From NCBI GenBank assembly GCA_016187745.1, contig JACPJC010000001.1, forward strand, positions 29,571 to 93,570: 64,000 bases of DNA, read 5' to 3'. This DNA is from Candidatus Iainarchaeum sp. (GTDB taxonomy: Archaea > Iainarchaeota > Iainarchaeia > Iainarchaeales > JAXPJC01). The position numbers were made by a program, and so were the translations under genes. Each line of letters begins with the position of its first letter. Position 1 is the first letter of the stretch. The notes under the pieces are model-generated. The model was not told the origin of the DNA, made no database searches, and saw nothing but the letters and a program-made list of their open reading frames with translations. Positions 443-47,312 of this stretch are shown piece by piece.

Positions 443-1129
443 TCATTTTCTGTTTTTCAGCAGGCTGAGCAGTTCCATCGGTATTGGGATAATTGTCTTG
501 TTTCCCTTCCCATTTGATTCCGTAAGCGCCTCCAATGTCCTGAGGTGCATTGCAGCGCTGTTTTTTGACAGGACATCCGCAGCCTTTTTCAGGTTGCCTG
601 CCGCCGCCAGTTCGCCTTCTGACCTTATTATTGAAGCGCGCTTTTCCCTTTCCGCTTCAGCCTGCTTTGCCATTATGGGCTTCATTTCCCCCGGCAGCTC
701 TATGTCCTGCATTTTTATTGCACTTACCTCAATGCCCCAGGGCTCTATTTCCGAACCCACAACTTCCTTGACCTTCGAGGAGATGTATTCCCTTTTTGCA
801 AGCACGGAATCAAGGTTGCTCGCTCCAACACTGTCGCGCAGCGCGGCCTGCGCATACTGTGCAACCGCATATATGTAATCCTGCACATTCAATACTGCTT
901 TCTTTGCGTCAATAACCTTGAAGTAGACAACGGCATTTATCTTCACAGGAACATTGTCAAGCGTCATTACCTCCTGCTTTGGGATGTCAATGGTTTTCGT
1001 GCGCATGTCCACTTTGACTATTTTCTGCACCGCAGGAAAAAAGAAATGCATCCCCGGGGCAAGCAATCCTGAGAATTTTCCCCCTGAAAATTTCACGCCC
1101 TCCTCAAACTCATATACGAATCTCATCAT
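443..1129 (-). CDS. SPFH/band-7 family protein (stomatin/prohibitin-like)
   Basis: 228 aa. N-terminal hydrophobic segment, SPFH core (VDMRTKTIDIPKQEVMTLDNVPVKINAVVYFKVID...), and a C-terminal Ala/Glu-rich coiled coil. Confidence 0.85.
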   Translation of the reverse strand: MMRFVYEFEEGVKFSGGKFSGLLAPGMHFFFPAVQKIVKVDMRTKTIDIPKQEVMTLDNVPVKINAVVYFKVIDAKKAVLNVQDYIYAVAQYAQAALRDSVGASNLDSVLAKREYISSKVKEVVGSEIEPWGIEVSAIKMQDIELPGEMKPIMAKQAEAEREKRASIIRSEGELAAAGNLKKAADVLSKNSAAMHLRTLEALTESNGKGNKTIIPIPMELLSLLKNRK

Positions 1130-2421
1130 GCAAATTCCTCCTTGTTGTATTCATTGACCAGACCTAGCAATTCCCTTCTTTCTGAATCAATCGCCTTGTG
1201 CCTGATTCCGAGCCTCCGGAATTCCTTTTTCTTCTGGAATTCTCCCTTTGGCGCCAGCACATATTTCTTCCTTTTTGAATCTTCCTCCATCGAGAACATT
1301 AAATGCTTTCTCGGCTTTTCAAACAAATCCAGGCTCATTCCCAGGAGCGTTCTTTCCCTTGCAATCAGCTCATCGCTCTTTCCCAAACCCTTCCTTTCAG
1401 CTTCAAATATTCCCGGCAGCTTCAGCTGCTTTCTCTCCTTCCTCAGCAGCACTTCAGCTTCTTCAATGTTTTTTGGATATTCCTTCCCCCTGTTAAGGAC
1501 CGTCTGGATTATCTCTTTGGGCTGCAGGCTGCTTTTCAGATATTCCTCCGCAAGATGCGTGTTGAATGCCCTGCATGATACTATATCGGTTTTTACCAGC
1601 TGTTTTTTCGGATAGGTGTGGATTGCAATATGGCTTTCCGCGATTATGACAACCCCTGAAACTCCGCTCTCATCCTCCTTTTCCGAGTAGTAGTGGAAGG
1701 CACTAGGCTCGGAAATCTTCTGCATGCCGATGAGGTTTGGCAATTCATCCAGCATGCGCCTCACGAATTCCTCGCTGTTCAGCTTTTCCGAATTGCACTT
1801 GTAGGAATCAAAAATGAACTGCGTTCCGTAGGTTTCGGAAAACTGCCTGAAAGCAAGATAGAACAGCCTGTTTCCAAGCTCATAGCCGATTTGATACAGA
1901 AATATTGCAATGAAGTATATCCAATTGCTAAGATAGATTGAAACAGCAAATCCTGCAACAATCAGCAGAGGCCTTTCCTTAATGAAAAATTCCAGTGTTC
2001 TGTTTATTCTCTTCATTGATTTTCTCAGATTGTCAGAATATTCGTTCAGCGCCTCATCTGCAAATGCAAAGACTATGAAAACCAGGAGCAGCGGAATGCT
2101 TACCTGCGGCAATCCCAGGAAAGCAACCATTCCGACCAATAATGCGACCGCCAGCTGATGGCTCCTGTCAATCCTTTCATGCAGCAGAACCCCGATTACA
2201 ACGGCAATCCCAATGGTTGCAGTTTCAGTTGATAAGGAAACTAAATAGCCTGCGGAAATCCCGAAAACTGCGCCAAATGCATATTTCAGTTTCGGCCCGA
2301 CTTTTGCCTGCTCGTCAATCAAATTGTCCGTAACCTTGGTCAGGATTCCGGTTATGAAACTCAATGAGAAAATCAGAATATTAAGAAAAGACAGGAACAT
2401 TTTTTCACTCCCACATCCCAT
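1126..2421 (-). CDS. speH: Polytopic membrane protein fused to a pyruvoyl-dependent S-adenosylmethionine decarboxylase (SpeH-like) core and a charged C-terminal tail
   Basis: Residues 1-180 contain multiple TM helices. Residues ~190-300 read ...ESGVSGVVIIAESHIAIHTYPKKQLVKTDIVSCRAFN, which matches the archaeal SpeH proenzyme motif (VLVLLAESHISIHTYPE...VDVFTCG). The start overlaps the SPFH start by 4 bp (ATGA). Confidence 0.6.
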   Translation of the reverse strand: MGCGSEKMFLSFLNILIFSLSFITGILTKVTDNLIDEQAKVGPKLKYAFGAVFGISAGYLVSLSTETATIGIAVVIGVLLHERIDRSHQLAVALLVGMVAFLGLPQVSIPLLLVFIVFAFADEALNEYSDNLRKSMKRINRTLEFFIKERPLLIVAGFAVSIYLSNWIYFIAIFLYQIGYELGNRLFYLAFRQFSETYGTQFIFDSYKCNSEKLNSEEFVRRMLDELPNLIGMQKISEPSAFHYYSEKEDESGVSGVVIIAESHIAIHTYPKKQLVKTDIVSCRAFNTHLAEEYLKSSLQPKEIIQTVLNRGKEYPKNIEEAEVLLRKERKQLKLPGIFEAERKGLGKSDELIARERTLLGMSLDLFEKPRKHLMFSMEEDSKRKKYVLAPKGEFQKKKEFRRLGIRHKAIDSERRELLGLVNEYNKEEFA

Positions 2422-3346
2422 TTTTTTCTTTCAGTGCAGCAATCATTATGGGAAACAAGATTGTCGCATCCCCCACAACATTTGCTGTTTTTCCCTTCTC
2501 CTGTATTTTTCCCCAGCTCTTCGCTTCCTTTGTTTGTGCGCCAGAAAGGCTCCCGTCATATTCTGAGGCAGTTGAAACATACACTGCATAATCTAATCCT
2601 TCCCTCACAATATTCGCGCCTATCACATGGTGCTTTGAAATTCCCCCGCCTAAAATTATTCCCGCGGTTTTATCAGCATTAAGCACAATGTTCGCAAGCT
2701 CCTTCATATCCCCGGTTACATCAACGCAGAAATCAGGGTGGTTCTGCTTGAAGAAGAACATCTGCAATCCTATTGCGCCGTCTGTAATTCCCGGGCAGAA
2801 AACAGGGATCTTGTTTTTTGCAGCCCAGTAGAGGAAAGAGCTTTCATTCAGTCTGCTCCCTATGAATTCATTCAGCGCCCTTGGGGAAGTTGATTTGCTG
2901 CTTGCATACAGTTCCGAAAAAATCTTCTGCATCTTTTTCTCAAACAGCACAAAATGCCCCGTGGGGATGAAAATATTCCCGAGGCGGTTTATGCTTTTCT
3001 TGTGCAGCTCAACATCATTAACATCAAACGCGCCCTTGTAATACGGCACAAACGATTTTATCACATCATGGTCAATGCTTCCCGCTGTTGTCACAATCGC
3101 ATCAATGAAATGGGACTTGCACAGCTCTGCAAACACCCCGCGCAATCCGCTCGCTACCATGTTTGCCGTAAAAGCAAGGAAAATTGTGCATTTCTCCTCC
3201 TTCATTTTGCGCAGAATCTCAACAGCATCAGCCAGATGGGAAGCCTGAAAGCCAGAAGCGGAGAAAATACTGACCAGATCATCTGCTGAATTTCCGCCTT
3301 CATTCAATTTCATGTCCTTTATTTCCTCAAGGCCTAATTTCTTCAT
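2405..3346 (-). CDS. dys: Deoxyhypusine synthase
   Basis: 313 aa. Conserved DHS blocks (TANMVASGLRGV..., GGGISKHHVIGANI, spermidine/NAD-binding region). Overlaps the downstream gene by 17 bp. Confidence 0.85.
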   Translation of the reverse strand: MKKLGLEEIKDMKLNEGGNSADDLVSIFSASGFQASHLADAVEILRKMKEEKCTIFLAFTANMVASGLRGVFAELCKSHFIDAIVTTAGSIDHDVIKSFVPYYKGAFDVNDVELHKKSINRLGNIFIPTGHFVLFEKKMQKIFSELYASSKSTSPRALNEFIGSRLNESSFLYWAAKNKIPVFCPGITDGAIGLQMFFFKQNHPDFCVDVTGDMKELANIVLNADKTAGIILGGGISKHHVIGANIVREGLDYAVYVSTASEYDGSLSGAQTKEAKSWGKIQEKGKTANVVGDATILFPIMIAALKEKNGMWE

Positions 3347-4084: not shown

Positions 4085-6496
4085 ATGAAAAGAATCCTGT
4101 TTTTGTTTGCGCTTATGCTTTCATTAGGATTTGCAGGCGCGCAGTTTCCATTTGGGCAGCCGCAAGGCCAGCAGGGGGGCTCTGGATTCCCGCAGCAGGG
4201 ATTCCCCCAACAGCAGGGATTTGGATTTCCCCAGCAGATGCCGCAGCAGCAAGGCGGATTTGGCTTTGGCACAGCGCCACAGCAGGGCTTTGGGTTCGGG
4301 CAGGGCCAGCAGCAGTTTACCCCGCCTACTCCCGGATTTATAGGTATGCCAAGCGGCTTTGAAGCAAGCGCAATTGCACTGCCTCCGCAGTTTCCTTCAG
4401 GCGCTCCAATAAATGAAATGGTTTCAGCACGCATGGGGCAGAAGATATTTGAGAGGTTTGGAACGCAGGAATTAATTTCAATGTGTGCAGATGAGGAAAA
4501 AATGGCTGAAACAATTTATGATTATGTAAAGAGCCTGCAGATGCCTGAGCTGTGCGCGCCGATAAAGGAAGGCCTGCAGAACTGCGAGAAATCGATTGAA
4601 TTCTGCAATGCAATGGGTCAGGGAGTGCCATCTGGAAAGGATGGCAAAGAAATACTGCAGGCATGCCCGCCTGATGAGCAAATTATGAAGCAGATCTGCA
4701 TTGAAAGGAACAGTGAGGACCAGGGCAGGCGCTCTGCTGACTTTGATGAGGATGTTCCACTGCAGTGCGAGCTTGATTGGGAAAGAAATGCAGGAAACTT
4801 CCGGAGAATGTGCGAGCAGAGAAAAATTGAAAAGGAGAGAAAAGAATGCAGGCGCCCGGAGTTTGATGAAAGCTTCAGAAGGGACTGCGGCATGCGCAAT
4901 GGAAGGATTATAGACCGATTTGACCAGTTCGGCTGCGTTTCAGGATGGGAATGCCAGGGCGGAGAATCCTTTGGAAGAGAAACGCCGCAAAGGGCAATAT
5001 GCGGAAATAATTTATGCGAATATCAGGAAAACCCTGACAACTGCCCGGGTGATTGCAGACTTACTGGCGCGAGATGCGGGGACAATTTCTGCGATTCCGG
5101 GAATAATGAGAATTCAGGAAACTGCAGGCAGGATTGCCTGCCGAATTGCGGCGACGGAATATGCGCAGGAATTTCATGCATGTCAACAGGCTGCCCAGAA
5201 AGCGAGAATTCAGCCAACTGCCCGAATGATTGCGAAATAAGGCGCGAGCCCGGCGCAATATGCGGAAATACAATCTGCGAAGCAGGGGAGGATTATGGGA
5301 ATTGCGCCTCTGACTGCCAGGCGCCTGTAATAACAGAGGAGCCATTTGTCGGGCAGCCGGCTTCAACCGAAGAAACAGAGCCTTCAACAACAGAAATCGC
5401 AACTTCAACAGAGGCTGCAACAACCACTACTGAAACAACCGCAACATCAGCAGAAACCGGAACTGCAACAACTGAAACAGCAGCAACAACCACAACAACC
5501 GAAACCACAGCCCCCGCTGCAACAACAGAGCCGGCGCCAGAAGCTACAGCAACAACTTCCACAAAAAAGAGAGTTAATATTTATAAAATTTATATGCAGG
5601 GGTTTGGCTATCCGCAGCCAATGGCTCCGCAGCAGCCGATGCAGCCGCAGGGCTTCGGGTTTGGAATGCAGCAGGGCTTCGGGCAGGCGCAGGGAAATGA
5701 AGCCAATGCGCAGGACTTCTGCGACAAGGATTCATATATCCGGAGTTGCATGGGCAGGATGGAGGAGCAGTTCAACCAGCAGTTCCAGGAAACCAATGTT
5801 GACAGGATATGCGAGCTTGAGGCAAAACTGAACAAGAACCAGATGGCAAGGTTCTGCAAGCAGATGGAGCAGGGAAAAGACGATTGCAAAAAGCACGCAG
5901 AAGACGGATGCAAATTCATAGAAAAACAGCTCGGGAAATGCCAGGAAATGTCATCAGAAGAAGGCATAAAATCAATAATAGAAGAAAAGGCGCACGAGGG
6001 ATGCCTGTTCATCAAGATGCAGCAGTCGCAGTTCAGCGGATTCGGCCTTCCGTTTATGCAGCCCCAGGCGCTTCCGCTTGATTCGCAGATATTCAATACT
6101 GTTTCAGCGCTTGCGCAGAGCGAAAACATGCTTACAGGGGAGTATGCCCCGTGGCTTTCAGGCGAAAGGGGCAGGCTTGTGGATGTTGCGGAGGATGTTG
6201 GAAAGGCAGAGGCGAATGAGAAATCAAAAGATTTGATTTACCAGATAACAAAATTCTTCGGCATGCAGAAGGAAAAGGAACTGAAGGAAGCGAAAGCGCT
6301 GGAGAAACAGACTGAAAAGCTTGAAAAAACAATTGAGAATCTGAAGGCGCTTGCAGAGCAGATGCCTGATGAGAGCACAAAAACAGCGCTTGAAGAGAGC
6401 ATCAAAGGGCTGGAAGAGCGCATGTCCGAGCTGCAGGCAATGGTGCAGTCCAAGGAAGCAGGCGCAGCAGGCATAATGGGAATATTCGGCGGATGA
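4085..6496 (+). CDS. Secreted low-complexity protein: signal peptide, FG/Q-rich repeats, Cys-rich DUF4215-like repeats, Thr/Ala-rich stalk, second FG/Q-rich region, C-terminal coiled coil
   Basis: - Signal peptide MKRILFLFALMLSLGFAGAQ.
- About 90 aa of GFPQQ/QGFGFG repeats.
- Four repeats of CG(N/D)xxCExxExxxNCxxDC (nt ~4997-5345).
- TEETEPSTTEIATSTEAATTTTETTATS... linker (nt ~5340-5580).
- Second MQGFGYPQP...QGFGFGMQQGFGQ region.
- Two 8-Cys helical domains.
- Heptad-rich C-terminus ending GAAGIMGIFGG. Confidence 0.8.
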   Translation: MKRILFLFALMLSLGFAGAQFPFGQPQGQQGGSGFPQQGFPQQQGFGFPQQMPQQQGGFGFGTAPQQGFGFGQGQQQFTPPTPGFIGMPSGFEASAIALPPQFPSGAPINEMVSARMGQKIFERFGTQELISMCADEEKMAETIYDYVKSLQMPELCAPIKEGLQNCEKSIEFCNAMGQGVPSGKDGKEILQACPPDEQIMKQICIERNSEDQGRRSADFDEDVPLQCELDWERNAGNFRRMCEQRKIEKERKECRRPEFDESFRRDCGMRNGRIIDRFDQFGCVSGWECQGGESFGRETPQRAICGNNLCEYQENPDNCPGDCRLTGARCGDNFCDSGNNENSGNCRQDCLPNCGDGICAGISCMSTGCPESENSANCPNDCEIRREPGAICGNTICEAGEDYGNCASDCQAPVITEEPFVGQPASTEETEPSTTEIATSTEAATTTTETTATSAETGTATTETAATTTTTETTAPAATTEPAPEATATTSTKKRVNIYKIYMQGFGYPQPMAPQQPMQPQGFGFGMQQGFGQAQGNEANAQDFCDKDSYIRSCMGRMEEQFNQQFQETNVDRICELEAKLNKNQMARFCKQMEQGKDDCKKHAEDGCKFIEKQLGKCQEMSSEEGIKSIIEEKAHEGCLFIKMQQSQFSGFGLPFMQPQALPLDSQIFNTVSALAQSENMLTGEYAPWLSGERGRLVDVAEDVGKAEANEKSKDLIYQITKFFGMQKEKELKEAKALEKQTEKLEKTIENLKALAEQMPDESTKTALEESIKGLEERMSELQAMVQSKEAGAAGIMGIFGG

Positions 6497-6514: not shown

Positions 6515-7000
6515 TTATCCATCGCGTCTGATTTTCGCAAGTCTGGACTCATTATCAATGGCATTTTGCAACTCAAACATCTTAGCCCCTAAAGAATCAA
6601 CCAAATCCTTTGCAGCCTTCCATTCTGCAGGGTTATCACTAGAGTTTATTTTCAGTAAGTTAGCATTGGCAGCCTTCAATTTCTTTTTTATTCTGCTTAA
6701 TTCTTCAAGCTTGCCAGGAGAATAGTTCTTGTGCATTGCTATGATGCCCAATGCATCGTTTGCAGCGTTTTTTGCTATAAATATCTTCCCCCTAGCTCTT
6801 GTAAAATGTTTAAATTTACCTTGTCTGATAGCCCTATCAAGTATCCCCACAACAGTGCTTTTAGCTAAATTACATTCCACACTAATTGGCTCTACAAATG
6901 CCCATAAAGGCATATATCCCTCGGGCGCTTTTACCCGCCCAGATACCCTCCCTCTTACAAGCATCCTTCTTTTTACAGGCATAAAAACCACGTTATGCAT
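6515..7000 (-). CDS. Hypothetical protein, paralog A of a tandem pair (basic N-terminus, C-terminal coiled coil)
   Basis: 161 aa. Its C-terminal half KNYSPGKLEELSRIKKKLKAANANLLKINSSDNPAEWKAAKDL... aligns with KGYSLEESRELAKLKKSLRKANEELVRINSDQRLKMQNPAKWTAEQD... of the adjacent gene. Confidence 0.6.
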   Translation of the reverse strand: MHNVVFMPVKRRMLVRGRVSGRVKAPEGYMPLWAFVEPISVECNLAKSTVVGILDRAIRQGKFKHFTRARGKIFIAKNAANDALGIIAMHKNYSPGKLEELSRIKKKLKAANANLLKINSSDNPAEWKAAKDLVDSLGAKMFELQNAIDNESRLAKIRRDG

Positions 7001-7010
7001 AACCCGTGCT

Positions 7011-7514
7011 TCAATATCTAAGCCTTTTTAATTCAGCCTTCACTGTAAGATTCTTTTCCATCTCATTTATGCTTCCGCCAAGCTTATAAACCTCTTTTTG
7101 CGCAGCATCCTGCTCCGCAGTCCATTTCGCAGGATTCTGCATCTTAAGCCTCTGGTCTGAATTAATTCTTACTAATTCCTCGTTTGCCTTTCTCAGCGAT
7201 TTTTTTAGTTTTGCCAGCTCCCTGCTTTCTTCCAAGGAATAGCCTTTGTAACGTTCAACATACGCCTCCAAAGCACTTTCAGGCACGAGGAGATATGGCT
7301 TTTTTCCGACAAAAACCCTTTTCACCCCGCTGAGTTTGCCTAAAAAGAACTCAATACGTTGCCTATCCGCTTCCAAACCGTGTGTCATAGCCAGTTTATG
7401 CACAAACATATCGGTTGTAAGGTATCCCTTCCGGGCCAATAGCTTATTCTTATTTACTCTCTTTATGCCGCGGGCTGCATATTTTCTTATCAGAGGCCTG
7501 CCCGGTTTTTTCAT
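7011..7514 (-). CDS. Hypothetical protein, paralog B of the tandem pair
   Basis: 167 aa. Basic N-terminus MKKPGRPLIRKYAARGIKRVNKNKLLARKG. Shares the C-terminal coiled-coil block with 6515..7000. Confidence 0.6.
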   Translation of the reverse strand: MKKPGRPLIRKYAARGIKRVNKNKLLARKGYLTTDMFVHKLAMTHGLEADRQRIEFFLGKLSGVKRVFVGKKPYLLVPESALEAYVERYKGYSLEESRELAKLKKSLRKANEELVRINSDQRLKMQNPAKWTAEQDAAQKEVYKLGGSINEMEKNLTVKAELKRLRY

Positions 7515-7523
7515 AATGCTTGC

Positions 7524-10418
7524 CTACCCCGCAATCCCTATGTAAAATTTTCTTGCAATAAGCGGCTCCATTTCATGCGCGCCTTGTTCAGTTCTGAGTT
7601 TCGTGTTTGTTTCCTTCTCAATTGCGCCCCTGTATTTCTGCAGGAATTTTTCATCATCGCAGTCAATTATCAATTGCGCCTTTTGTTTTGGGAGAAGCTT
7701 CATTTCCTTCCTTTTCTCCTGTATGCGCCTGAGCAACTCGCGCAATTCCCATTCTTCTTTTAATTTATCATCCGCATCCAGGTTAAGGTAGATTGTTATT
7801 TCTCCAATTTGCGCTTTTGCATAATTTCCTTTTGGCTCTTTCTTAATTTCATTCGCCTTCTTCACATTGCACGCGACTTCAAGCATTTTTTTCACTTTTG
7901 AAAGCTCCTTCCCCGACTTTGTTTTTATTGCCAATTCAAGCAAAGGCCAGCGGAGCTTCAATTTATTCTGCTCCCTCAGCGCAAGCGCTGCCTGCGTAAT
8001 TTCCTTCGCAAGCGCAAATTCCTTCTCCAATTCCAAATCAACCAGTTTCTTATTCGTTTCAGGGAACTGCAATAAATGCAGGCTCTCGGGCATTTTTCCC
8101 GAGCGCAGATGCAGGTACAGGTATTCAGTAATGTGCGGCGCAATCGGCGCAAGCAATTTAAGCAAGGAAATTATTGCAGTCCCGATTGTATTTTCAACAG
8201 CGCCCTGTGTTTTTGTCCCTATCCTTTCCTTTACGTGCCTTATGTAGGTTCGGCTCAAATCCTCCATAACAAAATTCGTTATTGCGCTGCACGCCTTCGG
8301 ATAATCATAGGACTTGTATGCATTTGTTGCCTCTTCAATCAATGAATTAAGCCTGCTCAGGAGCCATTTGTCCTCAATCTGCAATCCCTTTGCGCTTATT
8401 TTCCCCCTGTGCGCGGTTTCAGGCTTCAATTGCAAATACATTTCCGCGAAATTGAAAACATTCCAGAATATCCCGAAGAACCTGTTCAGCTCGTTGAATT
8501 CCTCAACATCAAATATCAAATCCTCGCCTTTTGAGGTTGATGCCAGATAAAAGCGCAGATAATCGCGGTTGTATTTTTCAATCACCTCAGAAGGCTGCAC
8601 GATATTGCCAAGGCTTTTTGACATTTTTTTCTTTCCCATTCCCAGAACCATCCCATGAACCGCAATTGTCTTGTAGGGCGCCTTGTCAAATGCGATTGTT
8701 GAAAGTATCAGTTGGGAGTTCCACCATCCGCGCACTTGCTCGGTTGCCTCAATGTTCAAATCAGCGGGCCAGAATTTCCTGAATTGGGAAGAAGACTGGG
8801 GGAATCCAAGCGCCGCCCAGCTTGAAACTCCTGAATCAAACCAGACATCAAGCACCTCAGGAACCCTTCTCATTTCCCCTCCGCAGGAACATTTTATTTT
8901 AATCTCATCAATCCCCGGCTTGTGCACATCATTTATTTTCTGCCCTGATAATTTTTCCAGTTCCTCAATTGAGCCGATTACAGTTCTCTTTCCGCATGAA
9001 TTGCAAACCCATATCGGGAGCGGGGTTCCCCAGTAGCGCGCGCGGGAAACAGGCCAGTCGCCCAATTGCTCTAACCAATTTTTCATCCTGTCCTGCATCC
9101 ATTCCGGCTTCCAGGCAGTTTCTGAATTCAGCCCAAGCATCCTTTTCTGTATGCCTGAAACCCTGAAAAACCATTGCGGCAATGAAAGCATCAGCAGCGG
9201 GCTCTTGCAGCGCCAGCATATCGGATAATCATGCGTGTAAGCGTGCTTTAGAACAAGCGCATTTTCAGATTCCAAATCGGAAATTATTTCGGAATCCACT
9301 TCCCTTGCCTTTTTGCCTGAGTATTTTCCCGCCTCTCCGGTAAGAAGGCCGTTTATTGCAACAGGGCTCGGCATTGGAAGTTCATTTTTCTTCCCTTCCT
9401 CATAATCCTCCTTCCCGTGCCCCGGGGCGCAATGCACCAATCCGGTTCCTTCCTCCAGATTCACATAGCGCTCTGACATTATTACGCGGTATGCGCTCTT
9501 CAGTTCAGCATCGCCCAAATTCAGATTTATGTTTTTTGCAAGCGGGCTCTCATAATGCAGATTCTGAAGTTCCTTCCCCCTGAATTCCCTTTTTATTGTG
9601 TATGCTGCCTCAATGGAATCCATGAGCTTCTGCGCCAGTTCCTTTGCAACAATCCATGTTTCCCCGTTGCTTAACTCCAGTTCAACATACTCATGCTGCG
9701 GATGCACCATGACCCCGGTATTTCCCGGTAGCGTCCACGGGGTAGTGGTCCATACAACCAGATATTTGTTATTTGTGCCACTTACTTTGAATTTAACATA
9801 AATGCTGTTGTCGGTCTGTTTAGTGTATTCAATTTCATTATATGCAACGGCAGTTTCGCATCTCGGGCAGACATGCACGGGGTATTTTCCCAGATAAAGA
9901 AGGCCTTTCTCCTCGGCTTTCTTGAAGGTCCACCAAATCGCCTCAATGTAATCATTGCTGAGCGTGAGGTAAGGGTTTTTCCAGTCCATCCACACCCCAA
10001 GATTCTCAAATTCAGCATTCATCACATCAATGTAGCGCGTCGCGTATTCCTTGCATTTCCCAATGAATTTCCCAACACCAAATGTTTCAATGTCCTTCCT
10101 GCTTTTTGTCCCAAGCTCCTTCTCAATCTGGAATTCAATAGGAACCCCGTGCGTGTCATAGCCCGGGCGGTCAAAAACATCAAATCCCTGCATGCGCGCA
10201 GCGCGCATTGCAATATCCTTGAGGATTTTGTTCAGCGCAGTTCCCATGTGTATGTGCCCTGTCGCATATGGGGGGCCATCCATGAAATAGTATTTCTTCC
10301 CGGATTTCGCATTCCGCGCCCTTGCCTTCTCGGGAATCTTCCTCTCCTTCCAGAATTTATGCACTTCCTCTTCCTTCTGCAGGGAATAAGGCTCAAGCGC
10401 TTTCTGTTTTTCAGCCAT
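7524..10418 (-). CDS. ileS: Isoleucyl-tRNA synthetase
   Basis: 964 aa. Class I HIGH motif (PPYATGHIHMGTALNKILKD), GYDTHGVPIE (IleRS-type, compare GWDCHGLPIE), KMSKS (KKMSKSLGNIV), and a CxxC zinc knuckle. Confidence 0.85.
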   Translation of the reverse strand: MAEKQKALEPYSLQKEEEVHKFWKERKIPEKARARNAKSGKKYYFMDGPPYATGHIHMGTALNKILKDIAMRAARMQGFDVFDRPGYDTHGVPIEFQIEKELGTKSRKDIETFGVGKFIGKCKEYATRYIDVMNAEFENLGVWMDWKNPYLTLSNDYIEAIWWTFKKAEEKGLLYLGKYPVHVCPRCETAVAYNEIEYTKQTDNSIYVKFKVSGTNNKYLVVWTTTPWTLPGNTGVMVHPQHEYVELELSNGETWIVAKELAQKLMDSIEAAYTIKREFRGKELQNLHYESPLAKNINLNLGDAELKSAYRVIMSERYVNLEEGTGLVHCAPGHGKEDYEEGKKNELPMPSPVAINGLLTGEAGKYSGKKAREVDSEIISDLESENALVLKHAYTHDYPICWRCKSPLLMLSLPQWFFRVSGIQKRMLGLNSETAWKPEWMQDRMKNWLEQLGDWPVSRARYWGTPLPIWVCNSCGKRTVIGSIEELEKLSGQKINDVHKPGIDEIKIKCSCGGEMRRVPEVLDVWFDSGVSSWAALGFPQSSSQFRKFWPADLNIEATEQVRGWWNSQLILSTIAFDKAPYKTIAVHGMVLGMGKKKMSKSLGNIVQPSEVIEKYNRDYLRFYLASTSKGEDLIFDVEEFNELNRFFGIFWNVFNFAEMYLQLKPETAHRGKISAKGLQIEDKWLLSRLNSLIEEATNAYKSYDYPKACSAITNFVMEDLSRTYIRHVKERIGTKTQGAVENTIGTAIISLLKLLAPIAPHITEYLYLHLRSGKMPESLHLLQFPETNKKLVDLELEKEFALAKEITQAALALREQNKLKLRWPLLELAIKTKSGKELSKVKKMLEVACNVKKANEIKKEPKGNYAKAQIGEITIYLNLDADDKLKEEWELRELLRRIQEKRKEMKLLPKQKAQLIIDCDDEKFLQKYRGAIEKETNTKLRTEQGAHEMEPLIARKFYIGIAG

Positions 10419-10493
10419 CTTGATTCACTTGAAACTTCTTTTTTCTTTGGGTAATACCTAGACTTTCTTTTTTGTAAAAAGAAAGGATTGGTG

Positions 10494-10568
10494 TGGGCAT
10501 GGAGGGATTTGAACCCTCGACCCTTGGCTTATAAGACCAATGCTCTGACCAGGCTGAGCTACACGCCC
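10494..10568 (-). tRNA. tRNA-Ile, anticodon UAU
   Basis: The reverse complement GGGCGTGTAGCTCAGCCTGGTCAGAGCATTGGTCTTATAAGCCAAGGGTCGAGGGTTCAAATCCCTCCATGCCCA folds as a 75-nt cloverleaf. Acceptor stem 7 bp with one G-U, D-stem GCTC/GAGC, anticodon stem TTGGT/GCCAA, loop C-T-TAT-A-A, T-stem GAGGG/CCCTC with T-loop TTCAAAT. Confidence 0.8.
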
Positions 10569-10788
10569 TTGCAATCAAATAGTATGAAGTGTGAGGAGAT
10601 TTAAATATATAACTAAAATCAGCGCAGTCCGCAGGGAATTCATTGCGGATGTATTTGGCAATCCCTTCTTTGCATTTTCATAAAGTAATTGTGCTGGAAT
10701 GGATTTATAAGATATGCGGATAGCTGTGCAGGAATAAAATAAAAACAAGAAATAGGAAAGAAAATCTGAGATTTCCGGAACGCGCAGA

Positions 10789-11289
10789 TTAATAGCTGTC
10801 GCTTCCTTCTTGGCTGTCGGATTCGTCCGAGCCGCCGCCGCTTCCGTAGCTGCGCCCTCTTCCGCCGCCATAGCTGCCTCTGCCATAGCCGCCTCCGCGC
10901 CCTCCGCCGCCGTAGCCGCCGCCCCCGCCGCCGTACCTGTTCTGCCTCTCGTGCTGCTGCTCTGACATGTTGTTTGTCGTGTTGGGCTCAATCTCCGCCT
11001 GCACTTCCTCTATTGTGCCGTATCTTCCAATGTTCATGCGCAGGGTGTTCTGGAAAAGCGATGTGTATCCGTTCTTTATCTCATAGCATTTCCCGATCTC
11101 TATCTTCTCTATCATGTCGTCCCACAAGGTCAGCTGTATTGCGCCTGATGCGTCTCCAACAAGCGCCTCCGCAACCTTGTGCGCGCTGGAATCGATCTTG
11201 CTTGTTACTTCCCTGATTTCATTTTTCTCCAAAACCTTCACTATCAGATCAACCTTCTTGGAGTAAGGCTTTAACTCAGATATGTTCAT
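10789..11289 (-). CDS. ssb: Single-stranded DNA-binding protein (archaeal OB-fold SSB) with a C-terminal RGG/YG-rich tail
   Basis: The OB-fold MNISELKP...VKVLEKNEIREV...AEALVGDASGAIQLTLWDD...GKCYEIKNGYTSLFQNTLRMNIG resembles Sulfolobus-type SSB. The tail reads GGGGGYGGGGRGGGYGRGSYGGGRGRSYGSGGGSDESDSQE. GGAGG lies 7 nt before the ATG at 11289; the long ORF starts 30 nt further upstream. Confidence 0.7.
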   Translation of the reverse strand: MNISELKPYSKKVDLIVKVLEKNEIREVTSKIDSSAHKVAEALVGDASGAIQLTLWDDMIEKIEIGKCYEIKNGYTSLFQNTLRMNIGRYGTIEEVQAEIEPNTTNNMSEQQHERQNRYGGGGGGYGGGGRGGGYGRGSYGGGRGRSYGSGGGSDESDSQEGSDSY

Positions 11290-11474
11290 GAAATTTCCTC
11301 CGTGTTGTGAAATACTCATTTGCGAATTAGTTCAACTTGTGAAACACCCAAAAGTGTTCGAAGCAGGCTAATTCTTTTGAGTCTGTCATAAGTAGTGTGC
11401 AGGCTTCAGTTTTAAATACTTTCGGGGGCGTTCCGCCACTGAACATATTAAAAATAAAAAAAGAAAAAGAGGGC

Positions 11475-12140
11475 TTAGTCCTTTTTCAATTCAGCAATGA
11501 TGCGCTTTGCATCCTTCCTGAACGCCAAGCCGAACGCAATCCCGACCACTATTGCCGCTACGAGCACCAGTGCCGTGAATCCTATCTTGAACGCCTCAAT
11601 CAGTATTGTGACGTCCAGTCCCATTGTGCCAAGGCCCATTACCAGAGCCATGTACGCAATGATGAATTCTGCAACCGATGCCGCAGTCTGCTTGTATCTG
11701 TGCTGGGTAACCTGTATCTTGTTGCTGATGTATCTGCCGAAGAGCAGGCCGATTACTATTATTATTATGCCCGCTAATACTGCCGGAATGTATCCGACAA
11801 TCTGGCCTATGAAATTGCTCACGGGCCCTTCGCCCAGGAATACCACAGCCTGCTGCAGGAATATGAGTATTATGTACCACTCAACTATTTTTCCCGCAAT
11901 CCTTGAGATTGTGATATTGCCCAGTGCAGATGCCAGGTTTGTCTTTTTTATGTACTCGTCTACCCCGGAAACCTTCAGCAGCCTCACTGTTACTATCTGC
12001 AGTATTTTTCCGACAAGGTAGCCGACTATCACCAGTATTACTGCCAGCACTATGCCTGGAATTGCATTCACAAACGCAGTCAGCAGATTGCCGAACGCGC
12101 TTTGCAATGCTGTTCCTATGTCAGTTATCTGTGCAACCAT
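11475..12140 (-). CDS. Integral membrane protein, possibly a mechanosensitive-channel-like/conserved TM-helix repeat family member
   Basis: 221 aa with about 6 TM helices and repeated amphipathic TM-helix units. Confidence 0.55.
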   Translation of the reverse strand: MVAQITDIGTALQSAFGNLLTAFVNAIPGIVLAVILVIVGYLVGKILQIVTVRLLKVSGVDEYIKKTNLASALGNITISRIAGKIVEWYIILIFLQQAVVFLGEGPVSNFIGQIVGYIPAVLAGIIIIVIGLLFGRYISNKIQVTQHRYKQTAASVAEFIIAYMALVMGLGTMGLDVTILIEAFKIGFTALVLVAAIVVGIAFGLAFRKDAKRIIAELKKD

Positions 12141-13006: not shown

Positions 13007-14665
13007 TTATTCCATATCAGGCATTCCGCCCATGCCGCCCATTCCGCCGGGAGGCATGCCCCTTCCGGCTCCTCCCTTAGAGCTTGCGGCAATCATGTCA
13101 TCAATGCGCAGTATCATTTCTGCCACTTCGCTTGCGGATGTTAGGGCTTGAGTCTTGATGCTCAATGGCTCAATTACGTGCTGCTCCTTCATGTTTGTCA
13201 GGCTTCCCTTGAATACATCAACCCCGATGTATTTCCCGTCCTTTGCCATGTGCTTTGAGCGCAGTCCCACTAATGTATCAATTGGGTCCATTCCCGCTGT
13301 TTCTGAAAGGGTCCTTGGAATTATCTCCAGTGTTTCAGCAAATGCCTCTATTGCAAGCTGCTCCCTTCCCCCGATGGTTTTTGCGAATTCGCGCAGTTTC
13401 ATTGCAACTTCAACTTCCGCTGAGCCCCCTCCGGCAACAACCTTTCCGACTTTTATTGCCGAAGAAACAGCGCATATCCCGTCATGCACCGCCCTTTCGG
13501 CCTCATCAACAACGTGTTCGCTTCCGCCGCGGATCAGCAATGAAATTGATTTGGGATTTTTGCAGCCTTCAACGAATGTCATGTCATCCCCTGCAACCTT
13601 CTTCTCGTGCACTATTTCAGCGCTTCCAAGGTCTTCCTTTGTAAGGTCCTGTACGCGCGAAACCACTTTCGCATCAGTTGCGCGCGCAAGCGCATCCATA
13701 TCCGACTGCTTAACGCGCCTTATTGCAACAATGCCTTCCTTTGCAAGGAAGTGCTGCGCCATGTCATCAATCCCCTTCTGGCATATTACTACATTAGCGC
13801 CTGATTTCTTCACCGCCTCAACCATCTTGCGGAGCATTGCCTCTTCCTGGTCCAAAAATGCCTGCAACTGGTCCGGGGAGGTAATTTCAATTTTCGCGTC
13901 AGTTTCTGTTTCCTTTATCTCAAGCGCTGCATCAATCAGTGCAATCCTTGCATTTTTAACCGTTCTTGGCATTGCCGCATGCACTATCTCCTTGTCAACA
14001 ACAATTCCGCGGACCATTTCGCTGTCCTGGAGCGAAGCGCCGACTTTCTTCTCAACCTTTATCTGGTCAATGTCAATCACTGTTTTTCCATTCTCTTTTT
14101 CAGCCACCTGCCTTACTGCATTCACAACAAGGTCTGAGAGCTCCTCCGCAGCCTCGGAAATTTTTCCGGTCATGGATGTTAGGGCAATGTCCCTGAGGCC
14201 CTTCACATCGTCAAATGATATATCATCAGCGCACTTCGCATAGAATTCCTTCGCCTTCTGCGCCGCAATCCTATAGCCCTTAACTATTACGCTTGGATGT
14301 ATCTCATCATCAAGCAGCTTTTCAGCATTCCCGAGCAGGCTTCCCGCAATGACAACAGCAGTTGTAGTGCCATCCCCGACCTCATCATCCTGTGTTTTTG
14401 CAACTTCCACCATCATCTTTCCCGCAGGATGCTCGATTGCCATTGCCTCGAGTATTGTCGCGCCGTCATTTGAAATTGTAATGTCCCCCAAATCATCCAC
14501 TAACATCTTGTCCATGCCTTTGGGGCCAAGGGTTGATTTGACAGCATTTGCAACCGCCTTTGCAATAAGTATGTTTATCCTCTGCGCGTCCCTTCCGCGC
14601 GTTCTTTTTGTGCCCTCAGAAAGGAACACAACGGGCTGCTGAGTTTGGTCATTCGCCATATTCAA
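13007..14665 (-). CDS. ths: Thermosome subunit (group II chaperonin)
   Basis: 552 aa. [25 protein letters not shown], and a C-terminal [13 protein letters not shown] tail. GGAGG Shine-Dalgarno 8 nt upstream. Confidence 0.95.
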
Positions 14666-22382: not shown

Positions 22383-23480
22383 ATGGTTATTATGGCTGAT
22401 GAAAGGATTGACCCATGGGGCAATGCGGAAATAAGGGACTATGCGCACATATTCAAGGAATTCGGGCTAAGCGCATTTCCCGGGGAATGGAAAGCGCAGT
22501 TAAAGCACAGGCTTTTCGAGCGCGGGATAATAATTGCGCACAGGGACTTCCAGAAAGTAATGCAGCGCATCTCCTCAAAAAAGCCATTCATCAATATAAC
22601 AGGAATTGCCTCCTCGGGATATTTGCATTTGGGGCACAAGGCGGACATTGACCTGTTTGTCTTTTTCAAGGGCTGCAAGGCGAAGAACTACTTTGCAATT
22701 TCAGACATTGATGCTTATGTGAGCAGGGAAAAAATTCCGGACATGGAAACCGCGAAGAAATTCGCAGCTGACAACCTTGCGCACGCGCTCGCCCTCGGGC
22801 TTGAGCCAAAGGATGTTTATGTGCAAAGCCAGAAGGAGCCGCGCTATTACTCTTTTGCATTTGAATTGGGCAAAAAAATCACTCAGGCAACATTTGAGGC
22901 GATTTACGGCCATGTTGATCTGGGAAAAATTTCCGCAGGATTGCTGCAGTATGCTGATATTTTGCATCCCCAACTGAAGGAATATTCCGGAAAAATGCCA
23001 AGCATTACAGGGATAGGATTGGACCAGGACCCGCACGCACGCCTTACTAGAGACATTGCTCAAAGGCTCTCCTATGATATTGAAGTTCCGAGCTTCATCT
23101 ATTTCAGGCACCAATCAGGATTGAAGGAAGGCACAAAGATGTCAAGCTCTGACCCTGATACTGCAATATTCCTCAATGACAGCGCGGAGGCGGCAGCAAA
23201 AAAAATCTCAAGCGCATTTACAGGCGGAAGGAATACAGAAGCCGAGCAGCGCCAGCTGGGCGGAAATCCAGACGTGTGCAAGGTTCATGAAATTCTTCTC
23301 TTCCATTATCCCGATTCAAAGGAAGTTAAGCGCATATTTGATGAGTGCAGGAAAGGAAAATGGCTCTGCAGGGAATGCAAGCAGTTCACTTCAGAATTCA
23401 TCGCGGATTTCCTCAAAAAGCACCAGGCGCTTGTAAAGAAGAAAATGCCGATTGCGCAAAAAATAGTTTATGGGAAATAA
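22383..23480 (+). CDS. trpS: Tryptophanyl-tRNA synthetase (archaeal/eukaryotic type)
   Basis: 365 aa. HIGH variant SGYLHLGH, KMSSSDPDTAIFL, and AFTGGRNTEAEQRQLGGNPDVC (compare human WARS [22 protein letters not shown]). Confidence 0.75.
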   Translation: MVIMADERIDPWGNAEIRDYAHIFKEFGLSAFPGEWKAQLKHRLFERGIIIAHRDFQKVMQRISSKKPFINITGIASSGYLHLGHKADIDLFVFFKGCKAKNYFAISDIDAYVSREKIPDMETAKKFAADNLAHALALGLEPKDVYVQSQKEPRYYSFAFELGKKITQATFEAIYGHVDLGKISAGLLQYADILHPQLKEYSGKMPSITGIGLDQDPHARLTRDIAQRLSYDIEVPSFIYFRHQSGLKEGTKMSSSDPDTAIFLNDSAEAAAKKISSAFTGGRNTEAEQRQLGGNPDVCKVHEILLFHYPDSKEVKRIFDECRKGKWLCRECKQFTSEFIADFLKKHQALVKKKMPIAQKIVYGK

Positions 23481-30504: not shown

Positions 30505-33500
30505 TCAGCGCTTTTGCGCGTGGAAAAAAGGCCTTGAAGGCATCCTTTGCTTTGAGAGCCTGAGGGCAAGGGCAAACGCAATAATGATAACAAGAGCCAG
30601 CAGGCCCAATCCCAGTGAAGGGCCCAAAGCAAACAATCCCACAAGCGCGCCCTCAGGGGATTCCTTTCCCGCGGCGGATTCCCTTACATAGAGAACCATG
30701 GGCTTTTCCGAAACATACTTGTCGCTTGCGGCCCTGAGCGTCAATCCCCAATCCCCAATTCCCGCATTTGATGCGAGTTTTATTGTTCCAATTGCGGTAA
30801 TTGTTGAATTCGCATCAACGTTCCCTGTGTCTATCGAATTAAAGTAAATGTTGCCCGGCAATCCCTCTATTGAAATGCTGATGTTTGTTATTTTCTCGTT
30901 TGTCGGGTTTGTTATTATGAATGTGAGCTGCTGCTCCGCGCCCTGGTTCAAATCAATTACTTGCGGATAGCTCTCAATGCGCAATACATTCTCCTGCAGT
31001 ATCCTCTCCGAAACAACTTCAAATGCAATGGCAATCTCCTTTGTTGCGTATGCGCCTGATGCTTTGAGCGTTATGCTTTTTGCCCCGGCATTTGCGTCCG
31101 CTGAAACATCAATCTTTATGCTAACCTGCTTGGAGTTTCCCGCATTCAGGTATATGTTTGAGTCTGAAAGCGCAGCGCTTATTCCGTCATAGCCCTCTGA
31201 AACCGAGAGCGTGTAATCCTCGCCGTAATCCCCTATGTTCTTAACAAGCGCGTAAAGCTCATCGGCAGAATTGCGCTTTATCTGCAGGCCGGGGTTCAGT
31301 GCGCTTAATTCCGTTGCGTGCGCATTTGCGACATTTATGCACACTATCCTTTTCGCATAGGATTCCGCATCATAGGCAAACAATTCAATGTTATGGGTTC
31401 CTGCAGAACTCCCAAGCAGAGTTGTTATTTTGACTGAATTTGAGTATGTTGAGCCGCCCTCAATTGAGAATGCGGAAGTTTTCACTTCGGAAATAAGGTC
31501 CCCGTCCGCGGTCGCATTTATTGAAAGTTTTTCATCGGAGATGTTCCCTACGCTGAACGGAATTTCCATTGAGGAGTTCTTGTTCATGTCAATGCATCCG
31601 GCATTCACATCAAGCGTGAATTCCGCAGCCTGCGTTTCAGCGCAGTCAATCACATTGAAATATATGTCCTCCCTAACGGAGTTGTTTCCCAGAAGCGCGG
31701 TTGCCGCAATCTTGTAATTGTCAGCGATTTTTGTTGTTGAATTTGTCCTTATTGCAAGTTCCGCATACTGCTGGCTGCCTGTTGGCAGCAATAAATTGTC
31801 AGGCGAAAAATACGGAAGGAACATTTCGGATTCCGCCTTGAGCACAATCGCATTCTGGTCATAGTAGTTGTTTTTCAGGAGCACGTTTATTTTTCCTGTA
31901 GAGCCCCTGCATATGCTTGCTGTGCTTGCGCTCAATTCAACTGCGGGAGTCTGCTCGATTCTAACCCCGATAATGCTTGAAACGCTTTCTGTTGCCGAGG
32001 CGGAATAGGTTGCGGTAAATGTCGCGCTATAGCCCCCATAAACTGCATCGCTCGTTGCGCTTATTCCCAAAGAAACAGTGCTCTGCTCATTTCCGTTAAG
32101 GCACAGGGATGATGTATTAAGGGCTGTTTTCACATACGGGCTGCTTGAGCTTGCGCTAAAGGTCATGCATATTTTGGAACTGGAAGTGTTTTTTACCGTG
32201 AAGCCCGCGCTTTCATTATCCCCCTTGTCAAGCTCATAATTTATGAATATCGCATCCAGGTCTATTTTTGTGAGGCTTTCCTTTATATTAATGTAATAAT
32301 TATAGGGTTCGCGGTTTGCGCCGTAATCAAGGTTCAATGTTATGCCGTATTTTCCGACTGCGGCAGAATCCCCTGCGCTTACAGCCAATGATACCGCTGT
32401 TGAGGAATTCGCATCAATGCAGGGGTTGTTGGGGGAAGCGCTTGCCGAAATTGCGGAATCCGTGCTCTGCGCAGTTATCAGCGGGCATATCTGCGACGCC
32501 GAGTTGTTCTTTATTGTCACGCTTGCGCCTGACTGCTCCCCAATCTCAACATCAAGTTCTGAAGGTGAGAACTGCACTGAAAAATTTCCGATTACATTCA
32601 CATTGAAGCTTGCATTTGCATAAAAGCCCCCGGAGTCAGTAACCCTCACAGTTACGGTATTCGTTCCCAGGGAATTTGCATCCGGCGCAGCGCAGCTCAC
32701 ATTCTGGTTCGAGGTTATTGAGCAGTTCAGCAGATTTGAATCGCTCTGCGAAACAATTGTGAATGCCAATTGCGCGTCTGCGCTTTCCGCATCGCTAGCA
32801 TATGCCCATAAATCAATCAAATTCGCCTGCGCGCCTGAATTGACTAAAACATTCCTGTCGGGCAGCGCAGAAATCTGCGGGGCGGTATTCGCAAGGACAG
32901 TGAAGCTCCAGCCCGCGCTTGAGTAATTGCCAAGGGAATCAGAAGCAGTAATTGCCGCATCAACCTGCTGATTGTAGGCAAATTGCGCGCTTGGGGTAAA
33001 TGTAACAGCGCCATTGTTATAGCTCAACTGGGAATTTGCAAGAGTGTAATCGATCCCTTCAACAGCCATTGTGATGGAATTTATATTGATGCCTGAAGCA
33101 TCGCTCAATTGCGCGCTTATGGGCTGCATCAGGTTAGTGCTTATTGACCCGTTTGCGGGATTAAAGTTTGCTATTGCCGGCCCTGTGTTGTCAATGGCAA
33201 AATTGCCGTCGCTGTAGCCGGTTATTGTTTCATAGCCGATTATTCCATCGCCCATATCAACAGTGCCGGTAATGCTCACATCAAGGAAGTAATTGCCGTC
33301 TGCGAAGCCGCCTGTTGATGAATAGGAAGAGCATGCAAACGAATTTCCTGAACTGTCGCAGTTGGATGGGTCATACATGTCAAAATCTGAAAACACTACA
33401 TAGCTGTAGCCGTTGCTGATGTTTGCATCATTGTCAAGGTAAATGCCCGCCCCGTTCAAATTAGGCCCTATGCCTTCGGATGTGAAGTATGCGGAAAGGC

Positions 33501-47237: not shown

Positions 47238-47312
47238 TGGGGCAGGGAGGATTTGAACCCCCGTCTTGCGGTCCCGAACCACAGATCCTAGACCAGACTA
47301 GACTACTGCCCC
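47238..47312 (-). tRNA. tRNA-Pro, anticodon CGG
   Basis: The reverse complement GGGGCAGTAGTCTAGTCTGGTCTAGGATCTGTGGTTCGGGACCGCAAGACGGGGGTTCAAATCCTCCCTGCCCCA has a perfect 7-bp acceptor stem, anticodon stem TGTGG/CCGCA with loop TT-CGG-GA (G37), and T-arm GGGGG/CCTCC with TTCAAAT. The D-arm register is atypical. Confidence 0.7.

Follow-up and report, generated by a model that had tools for sequence, protein, structure and literature searches.

A genome-encoded tRNA-Ile(UAU) upstream of ileS in Iainarchaeota: a likely AUA decoder within an inherited gene order

Results

The 64-kb window analysed here (the whole stretch of DNA under study) carries a gene for an isoleucine tRNA whose UAU anticodon is encoded in the genome itself, and this gene lies on the minus strand upstream of ileS, the gene for isoleucyl-tRNA synthetase (IleRS). 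ARAGORN called it as tRNA-Ile(tat) (minus strand, 10493/10494-10568), and the Rfam tRNA model RF00005 covers the whole 75-nt gene (10494..10568; read as 10568-10494, model positions 1-71) with 73.1 bits (gathering score 29; E=4e-14). The covariance model reads the anticodon loop as C32-U33-U34-A35-U36-A37-A38, with UAU at 10533-10531. Both programs therefore agree with the first-pass annotation, which had placed a tRNA with the loop C-U-UAU-A-A at 10494..10568; the register is UAU in the tRNA-finder run and in the covariance model alike, not CAU. The gene is free of introns, has the discriminator base A73 and does not encode CCA. Two tRNA genes were found in the 64 kb by ARAGORN and Rfam, the other one being tRNA-Pro(CGG) at 47238-47312.

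Orthologous tRNAs were taken from metagenome loci centred on ileS (related loci are referred to by L numbers) and yielded an alignment of 14 distinct sequences. Orthologues with introns, which ARAGORN overlooks without its intron mode or in some cases labels as Ala, Ser or Leu, were identified by pattern matching and manual inspection. When the alignment is placed on the standard cloverleaf, 99.3% of the cells are paired, and in nine of the 21 base pairs both partners vary; covariation reaches 0.418, versus 0.165 in shuffles (none of 500 reached the observed value), and slid registers score 0.09 at most. The CUUAUA loop and most of the anticodon stem, whose invariant part is UGGU/ACCA, are unchanged across the 14 orthologues. 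The tRNA of L001 is identical to the window copy at all 75 of 75 positions, and the IleRS of the same locus is 87% identical to that of the window. The structure of tRNA-Ile(UAU) is under purifying selection with compensatory changes. A tRNA-Ile(GAU) lies nearby in L116 and L123, and it has acceptor, D and T arms in common with the UAU isoacceptor, the anticodon stem being the main difference; this likeness fits a common set of IleRS identity elements.

The codon AUA is used heavily. In the 38 annotated genes of the window it accounts for 387 of the 1046 isoleucine codons (37%), or 31 per 1000 codons, and AUG for 22 per 1000. At the 24 AUA positions of ileS itself, 55 homologues have I in 47%, L in 17% and V in 14% of cases; this profile resembles that of the AUU and AUC sites, whereas AUG sites differ from it (M 62%). 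By these codon and residue patterns, AUA is read as isoleucine in the Iainarchaeota source organism. That the tRNA bears on AUA decoding, as had been proposed, is borne out by the share of AUA among the isoleucine codons and by the alignment of AUA sites with I, L and V. Taken together, the pairing and covariation, the identity with L001, the AUA load, the residues at AUA sites and the likeness to tRNA-Ile(GAU) make pseudogene status or a non-isoleucine identity of this tRNA very unlikely.

The IleRS encoded next to the tRNA (7524..10418, minus strand, 964 aa) scores 875 bits with NCBIfam TIGR00392 (cutoff 621) and contains the Pfam domains tRNA-synt_1 and Anticodon_1, together with a partial DUF5915 (profile positions 83-168 of 195). 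Its nearest relatives in the PDB are T. thermophilus 1ILE and the type-2 IleRS 8C9D, and similarity places the enzyme in type 2 (archaeal/eukaryote-like). Its C-terminal domain is short, with only part of the type-2 domain matched. Members of the clade have IleRS proteins of about 945-970 aa. The closest homologues are 87-92% identical and the next about 55-66%, and they are labelled Candidatus Diapherotrites, Iainarchaeum or 'ainarchaeum'; the window, which has a G+C content of 45%, shares its gene order with Ca. Iainarchaeum andersonii SCGC AAA011-E11 (L157). From these homologue names and this gene order, the source is identified as a DPANN archaeon of the Iainarchaeota ('Diapherotrites'). 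A look-up of the window's exact IleRS sequence gave no entry in the assembly index.

No tRNA-Ile2(CAU) was found by ARAGORN or Rfam within the 64-kb window. The TiaS domains PF08489, PF22641 and PF23783 were not recognized in a Pfam scan of the open reading frames (ORFs) of the window, a scan that left out the 1304-aa ORF at 30505-34419 and a few short ORFs. A tblastn search with the TiaS of A. fulgidus (PDB 4RVZ, 100% over 420 aa) gave no match at E<1 in the window and 201 loci, 1.72 Mb of related sequence. When the same query was run against a protein database, the best 120 matches were all from Archaeoglobi, a result that is uninformative on DPANN.

The spacer between the 3' end of the tRNA (10494) and the ATG of ileS (10418) is exactly 75 nt long (10419..10493, minus strand), in keeping with the earlier estimate of about 75 bp on the same strand. 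On the upstream side, also on the minus strand, lie genes for an OB-fold single-stranded-DNA-binding protein (SSB, SSB/RPA-like; 10789..11319; NCBIfam NF005049, Pfam PF21473), a mechanosensitive-channel-like membrane protein (MscS; 11475..12140; NCBIfam NF033912 and synteny) and, more distally, a thermosome (Ths, Cpn60/TCP-1; 13007..14665; Pfam PF00118, 590 bits, and synteny). Downstream of ileS, deoxyhypusine synthase (DS; 2405..3346, minus strand; Pfam PF01916, 364 bits) is a block member in some relatives, namely in L001, L003, L005, L007, L020, L062, L106, L120 and L197. According to tblastn with the window neighbours, those tRNA-plus-ileS loci that have enough flank keep MscS, SSB and/or the thermosome upstream, with SSB preceding the tRNA in most of them, and none of the tRNA-less ileS loci keeps this upstream block. 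A conserved block, thermosome-MscS-SSB-tRNA-ileS(-DS), can thus be recognized by synteny.

In the metagenome set, examined with intron-aware detection and curated by hand, 16 ileS-centred loci have tRNA-Ile(UAU) on the strand of ileS and upstream of it; these include 13 of the 18 loci in which upstream sequence is usable and the IleRS is at least 57% identical, along with L010, L042 and L044 (IleRS identity 45-55%). In the tRNA-centred genome set, among the matches listed, ileS follows the tRNA in 16 Iainarchaeota-type loci, Ca. I. andersonii included, and in 0 of the 98 loci of other DPANN. At least three relatives (L107, L123 and L093) have the tRNA still with SSB/thermosome and ileS no longer downstream. 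The spacer measures 23, 42, 50, 68, 75, 81, 85, 85, 90, 99 and 109 nt in eleven cases and 334-1467 nt in further metagenome loci, and among the genome loci it reaches about 2.2 kb (L185); in L002 and L032 an extra ORF is inserted in it. Linkage beyond background synteny, of the kind that would mark an operon of a tRNA and an aminoacyl-tRNA synthetase, was not found, since the adjacency occurs only with the Ths-MscS-SSB block and the tRNA stays in the block where ileS is lost. We read the adjacency as an inherited, Iainarchaeota-specific gene order, with no positive sign of dedicated regulatory coupling. L185 and L193, which come from one 'Candidatus Iainarchaeum' metagenome-assembled genome (JBDRGO01), each have tRNA-Ile(UAU) and then ileS, the two IleRS being 57% and 68% identical to that of the window, which points to a bin that is mixed or contains two strains.

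An A/T-rich TATA-like box, TTATATATTTAAAT (10599..10612, minus strand), can be read from the sequence 31-44 nt upstream of the mature 5' end of the tRNA. It is identical in L001, and most orthologous loci have boxes resembling TTTAAAT or TTAAATA at about -45 to -27; it may well be the archaeal promoter element of the tRNA gene. On the other side, a T-rich/A-rich hairpin, CUUUCUUUUU-ACA-AAAAAGAAAG (10463..10485, minus strand), begins 9 nt past the 3' end of the tRNA and contains a T5 run, a candidate archaeal terminator of the tRNA transcript; T-rich hairpins likewise follow the tRNA in L001, L005, L006, L014 and L065. The hairpin forms a 10-bp stem inside the fold of the whole 75-nt spacer (minimum free energy -9.6 kcal/mol), and as a special structure it was rejected (z = -1.2 versus shuffles). 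TATA-like and Shine-Dalgarno-like motifs precede ileS in L005, L009, L014 and L042. The variable spacers with their inserted ORFs, the T-rich hairpin after the tRNA and the TATA-like boxes before ileS in relatives do not, at the level of sequence, describe a single transcription unit. Palindromes of T-runs and A-runs, (C)CTTTTCTTTTT...AAAAAGAAAAG(G), are located after the tRNA in the window (10463-10485), L001, L006, L014 and L065, and the same palindromes occur inside the tRNA introns of L005, L014, L062 and L065; they may represent a common terminator-like or repeat element of Iainarchaeota-type genomes.

A pattern scan for the D-arm, the 5' strand of the anticodon stem and CUUAUA, with one genome per GTDB species, returned at least 120 loci, so that tRNA-Ile(UAU) of this type is present in at least 120 GTDB species representatives. 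Among the matches listed, the record titles name Woesearchaeota, Pacearchaeota, Nanoarchaeota/Nanoarchaeia, Micrarchaeota, 'Nanobdellati' and Iainarchaeum/Diapherotrites. On the strength of so many species representatives across the DPANN phyla, a UAU-anticodon tRNA-Ile can be regarded as the norm in DPANN. The first-pass annotation had called this a minority solution. For archaea in general the description agrees with published counts, in which Nanoarchaeum and Korarchaeum are the two archaeal genomes out of 167 with tRNA-Ile(UAU) (PMC6000648; see also PMC3575796), and with the report from ARMAN (PMC3239211), but within DPANN the same solution is the rule. Its expected bearing on phylogenetic placement is likewise confined to supporting DPANN, and it gives no finer discrimination, since the same tRNA is found across the DPANN phyla.

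Outside the Iainarchaeota this tRNA gene is usually interrupted. Among the matches listed, an intron directly follows A37 in 94 of the 98 non-Iainarchaeota DPANN loci versus five of the 22 Iainarchaeota-type loci. The introns are about 14 to 238 nt long (44-144 nt in Iainarchaeota relatives, with intron-bearing metagenome loci L005, L008, L014, L062 and L065), and neighbouring genes for tRNA-Glu(UUC), tRNA-Gly and tRNA-Val are mostly intronless. Eukaryotic tRNA-Ile(UAU) has an obligatory intron that is needed for the formation of pseudouridine 34/36. The parallel hints that an intron-dependent step may have been dispensed with in the lineage of the window. The tRNA-splicing endonuclease EndA (169 aa, TIGR00324; 21825-22334, minus strand), a divergent neighbour of TrpRS at 22383-23480 (plus strand), is kept in the window though both window tRNAs, Ile(UAU) and Pro(CGG), are intronless.

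Two further observations concern the scanned loci. Among the matches listed, tRNA-Ile(UAU) outside the Iainarchaeota very often adjoins tRNA-Glu(UUC), and tRNA-Gly(GCC) and tRNA-Val(UAC) are frequent there too, forming a recurrent DPANN tRNA cluster; ARAGORN found 51 tRNA-Glu(UUC) genes in the window and the 201 loci, nearly all of them in L082-L201. The DPANN-type tRNA-Ile(UAU) is also present in evidently mislabelled bins under the names 'Methanosarcinales', 'Chloroflexota', 'Saccharibacteria' and 'bacterium'. L093, L120 and L160 stand under bacterial or Methanosarcinales names, like the 'uncultured Methanosarcinales' TPA_asm records L094, L098, L099 and L103, and L120 holds a full Iainarchaeota MscS-tRNA-ileS-DS block under a wrong name. 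These three loci and the TPA_asm bins are likely to be mislabelled or contaminated.

Several other genes of the window deserve mention. Directly downstream of ileS, the members of a tandem pair of paralogous ORFs (161 aa at 6515-7000 and 167 aa at 7011-7514, both minus strand) share 32% identity across 81 aa of the C-terminal halves (E=2e-10); both are kept in L020, and neither gave a match in Pfam or NCBIfam. The next gene, at 4085-6496 (plus strand), encodes a protein of 803 aa whose N-terminus is hydrophobic and which contains low-complexity repeats rich in Q/G/F, Cys-rich repeats (CGNxxCE...NCxxDC) and a Thr-rich linker; it has no Pfam match, is 72% identical in L001 and is probably a surface or secreted protein. 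The ORF at 30505-34419 (1304 aa) encodes a second large putative surface protein. There is a 17-nt overlap between the deoxyhypusine synthase gene and the start of a gene at 1126-2421 (minus strand) for a 431-aa protein that has a SpeH-type AdoMet-decarboxylase (AdoMetDC) domain (TIGR03330, 77 bits) and an N-terminal half that is hydrophobic by eye; a membrane-anchored enzyme of the AdoMetDC family, if this is one, would be unusual. The pair is kept downstream of ileS in L001, L003, L020, L120 and L197. At 53167-54741 (minus strand), a 524-aa fusion joins an N-terminal P-loop kinase-like domain (AAA_18/SKI) to a PP-loop ATP-pyrophosphatase domain with an SGGKDS motif. It was considered as a modifier of U34 or C34 and rejected, because its best match is to a WbuX-like N-acetyl-sugar amidotransferase (76 bits, below cutoff) and those to QueC, MnmA and TtuA are only marginal. 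An IS200/IS605-family OrfB/TnpB-like protein (39886-41031, minus strand), with OrfB_IS605, Cas12f1-like TNB and HTH_OrfB domains, indicates a mobile element or a relative of RNA-guided nucleases.

Discussion

We consider it likely that the tRNA-Ile(UAU) of the window is the functional, major AUA-decoding tRNA-Ile of this Iainarchaeota archaeon, and that its adjacency to ileS is an inherited gene order and not an obligate operon. Because U34 is encoded directly by the gene, AUA would be read through a U34:A3 pair; in the usual archaeal route, TiaS converts a CAU tRNA to its agmatidine form. The type-2 IleRS encoded just downstream would charge tRNA-Ile(UAU) and would have to accept U34. The tRNA is most probably transcribed from its own promoter, with the TATA-like box at -31 to -44, up to its own oligo-T/hairpin stop, and ileS would be expressed from a separate or a read-through transcript, not as an obligate operon partner. 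Such a U34 is not harmless elsewhere: the U34 version of haloarchaeal tRNA-Ile acquires cnm5U, binds codons in the order AUA > AUG > AUU, slows growth and is charged poorly by the haloarchaeal IleRS (PMC3895270). In an organism that uses AUA for 37% of the isoleucine codons in the window, the problems of AUG misreading and IleRS recognition, which make U34 deleterious in haloarchaea (PMC3895270), must have been solved, and the DPANN IleRS, the tRNA body and possibly the ribosome may have co-adapted to accept U34 and to limit AUG misreading.

Some points weigh against this interpretation. A lack of TiaS and of tRNA-Ile2(CAU) in the source genome would follow only by analogy with ARMAN and Nanoarchaeum, the part of that genome inspected being the 64-kb window. 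The spacer hairpin, which serves here as a stop, folds no better than shuffled sequence (z = -1.2), and no clear ileS TATA box was seen within the window spacer. In L010 the spacer is only 23 nt long and thus too short for a separate ileS promoter, which argues for co-transcription in at least that locus. This spacer, and a window in which no ileS TATA box is obvious, leave room for read-through expression. The gene order, moreover, is kept down to about 45% IleRS identity, which could also reflect selection for linkage.

The closest known counterparts are ARMAN-2, -4 and -5, which carry tRNA-Ile(UAU) and have neither tRNA-Ile(CAU) nor TiaS (Fujishima et al. 2011, PMC3239211). These Micrarchaeota/Parvarchaeota are likewise DPANN with a genome-encoded UAU tRNA-Ile, which there replaces the TiaS/agmatidine system, and Micrarchaeota loci that share this D-arm and anticodon stem are among those returned by our pattern scan. 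However, ARMAN-2 has a 25-nt intron at 37/38 where the window copy has none; adjacency to ileS was not reported for ARMAN (PMC3239211), and no listed Micrarchaeota locus has ileS beside the tRNA; and the absence of TiaS and the CAU isoacceptor is shown for ARMAN, whereas here it is seen for the window. Archaea without tiaS carry tDNA-Ile(TAT) (PMC3575796), and this gene is the common feature of Nanoarchaeum equitans and Korarchaeum cryptofilum, both reported to be without tiaS, and the window (PMC3575796, PMC6000648). The UAU copy of Korarchaeum resembles its own tRNA-Ile(GAU), as is the case in L116 and L123; the two organisms belong to other phyla, and the Korarchaeum copy has an intron. Whereas those two studies treat the trait as a rare, species-specific gain, it appears here as lineage-wide across DPANN (at least 120 species).

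Mycoplasma mobile also uses a UAU tRNA for AUA without a modified cytidine, with an unmodified U34 and an IleRS adapted to UAU (Taniguchi et al. 2013, PMC3575796). It is bacterial, however, and has the bacterial-type IleRS C-terminal domain, unlike the type-2 enzyme of the window. Eukaryotes resemble the present case in combining a cytoplasmic UAU isoacceptor for AUA with a eukaryote/archaeal-type IleRS. Their cytoplasmic tRNA-Ile(UAU) has pseudouridine 34 and shares the 37/38 intron with 94 of the 98 other DPANN orthologues among the matches listed, but not with the intronless copy of the window. The canonical archaeal tRNA-Ile2(CAU)/TiaS agmatidine system performs the same task, the reading of AUA and not AUG; here the anticodon is UAU, and no PF08489 or PF22641 domain is present in the scanned window ORFs.

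A redundant or decaying UAU tRNA, in a genome that decodes AUA with TiaS and a canonical tRNA-Ile2(CAU) encoded outside the window, would leave the window much as it is, since the part of the genome inspected amounts to 64 kb only; the window, furthermore, encodes an AdoMetDC-family decarboxylase. This family includes agmatine-forming enzymes in some archaea. Yet a decaying gene hardly accounts for a perfect cloverleaf of 73 bits with strong covariation across orthologues, for 100% conservation of the tRNA against 87% for the neighbouring protein in L001, or for a tRNA that is conserved across at least 120 DPANN species and meets a major codon in AUA. No TiaS domain was found in the scanned window ORFs and no tblastn match in the 1.72 Mb of related loci, and the published DPANN cases of UAU lack both TiaS and tRNA-Ile(CAU) (PMC3239211). 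We regard redundancy as highly improbable. Still harder to credit is a tRNA that is not charged with isoleucine, or a reassignment of AUA in the source organism, for example to methionine: AUA does mean Met in many mitochondria (PMC11938285), but the AUA sites of IleRS match I/L/V like the AUU and AUC sites and not M, the tRNA body resembles that of tRNA-Ile(GAU) from the same genome where relatives show both, and the discriminator base is A73.

A weightier question is whether co-expression makes the tRNA and ileS one functional unit. In that case ileS mRNA would come mainly from read-through starting at the tRNA promoter and be released by RNase Z and RNase P, the sole AUA decoder would be supplied in step with its co-adapted synthetase, and IleRS might bind the tRNA in its own leader. 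The tRNA-first, same-strand order in about 32 loci with IleRS identity down to about 45% speaks for such a unit, as do the spacers of 23-109 nt in 10 of the 15 tabulated metagenome loci (and 75 nt in the window), the absence of promoter room in the 23-nt spacer of L010 and of a strong ileS TATA box in the window spacer, and the poor charging of U34 tRNA by an archaeal IleRS of a CAU/agmatidine user (PMC3895270), so that enzyme and tRNA must co-evolve. The 'physical coupling' of the first-pass annotation stands as gene order, but not as a functional unit. The adjacency always comes with the larger Ths-MscS-SSB block, and in L107, L123 and L093 it is lost and the tRNA keeps SSB/Ths, not ileS; spacers range from 23 to about 2200 nt, those of 334-2200 nt including inserted ORFs; a TATA-like box of its own precedes the tRNA, and T-rich terminator-like hairpins come directly after it; TATA-like boxes and Shine-Dalgarno-like motifs stand before ileS in L005, L009, L014 and L042; and other DPANN phyla, among the matches listed, hold the orthologous tRNA in tRNA clusters without ileS. 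On balance we think a co-expression unit unlikely. More speculative, and quite improbable in our estimate, is a history in which the Iainarchaeota captured their sole AUA tRNA upstream of ileS, lost the near-universal DPANN intron and now use the pair as a co-expression module, with RNase P/Z processing of the read-through tRNA 5' element, or IleRS binding to it, setting ileS mRNA levels. If true, the module would be an archaeal T-box-like feedback made from a real tRNA gene.

Conclusions

In the open-access literature we found no text on TiaS/agmatidine or UAU decoding for Diapherotrites or for DPANN as a whole. What is new here is that the Iainarchaeota share tRNA-Ile(UAU) and that it is a DPANN-wide norm, the decoding solution itself being already known. 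The Iainarchaeota and at least 120 DPANN species thereby join the archaea that would read AUA with a genome-encoded UAU tRNA, and UAU decoding would be a clade-wide strategy instead of the two-genome oddity seen in surveys of cultivated archaea. The order of tRNA and ileS is usable as a synteny marker of the Iainarchaeota, and the tRNA-IleRS pair of the window offers a compact candidate for studying how U34 is accommodated.

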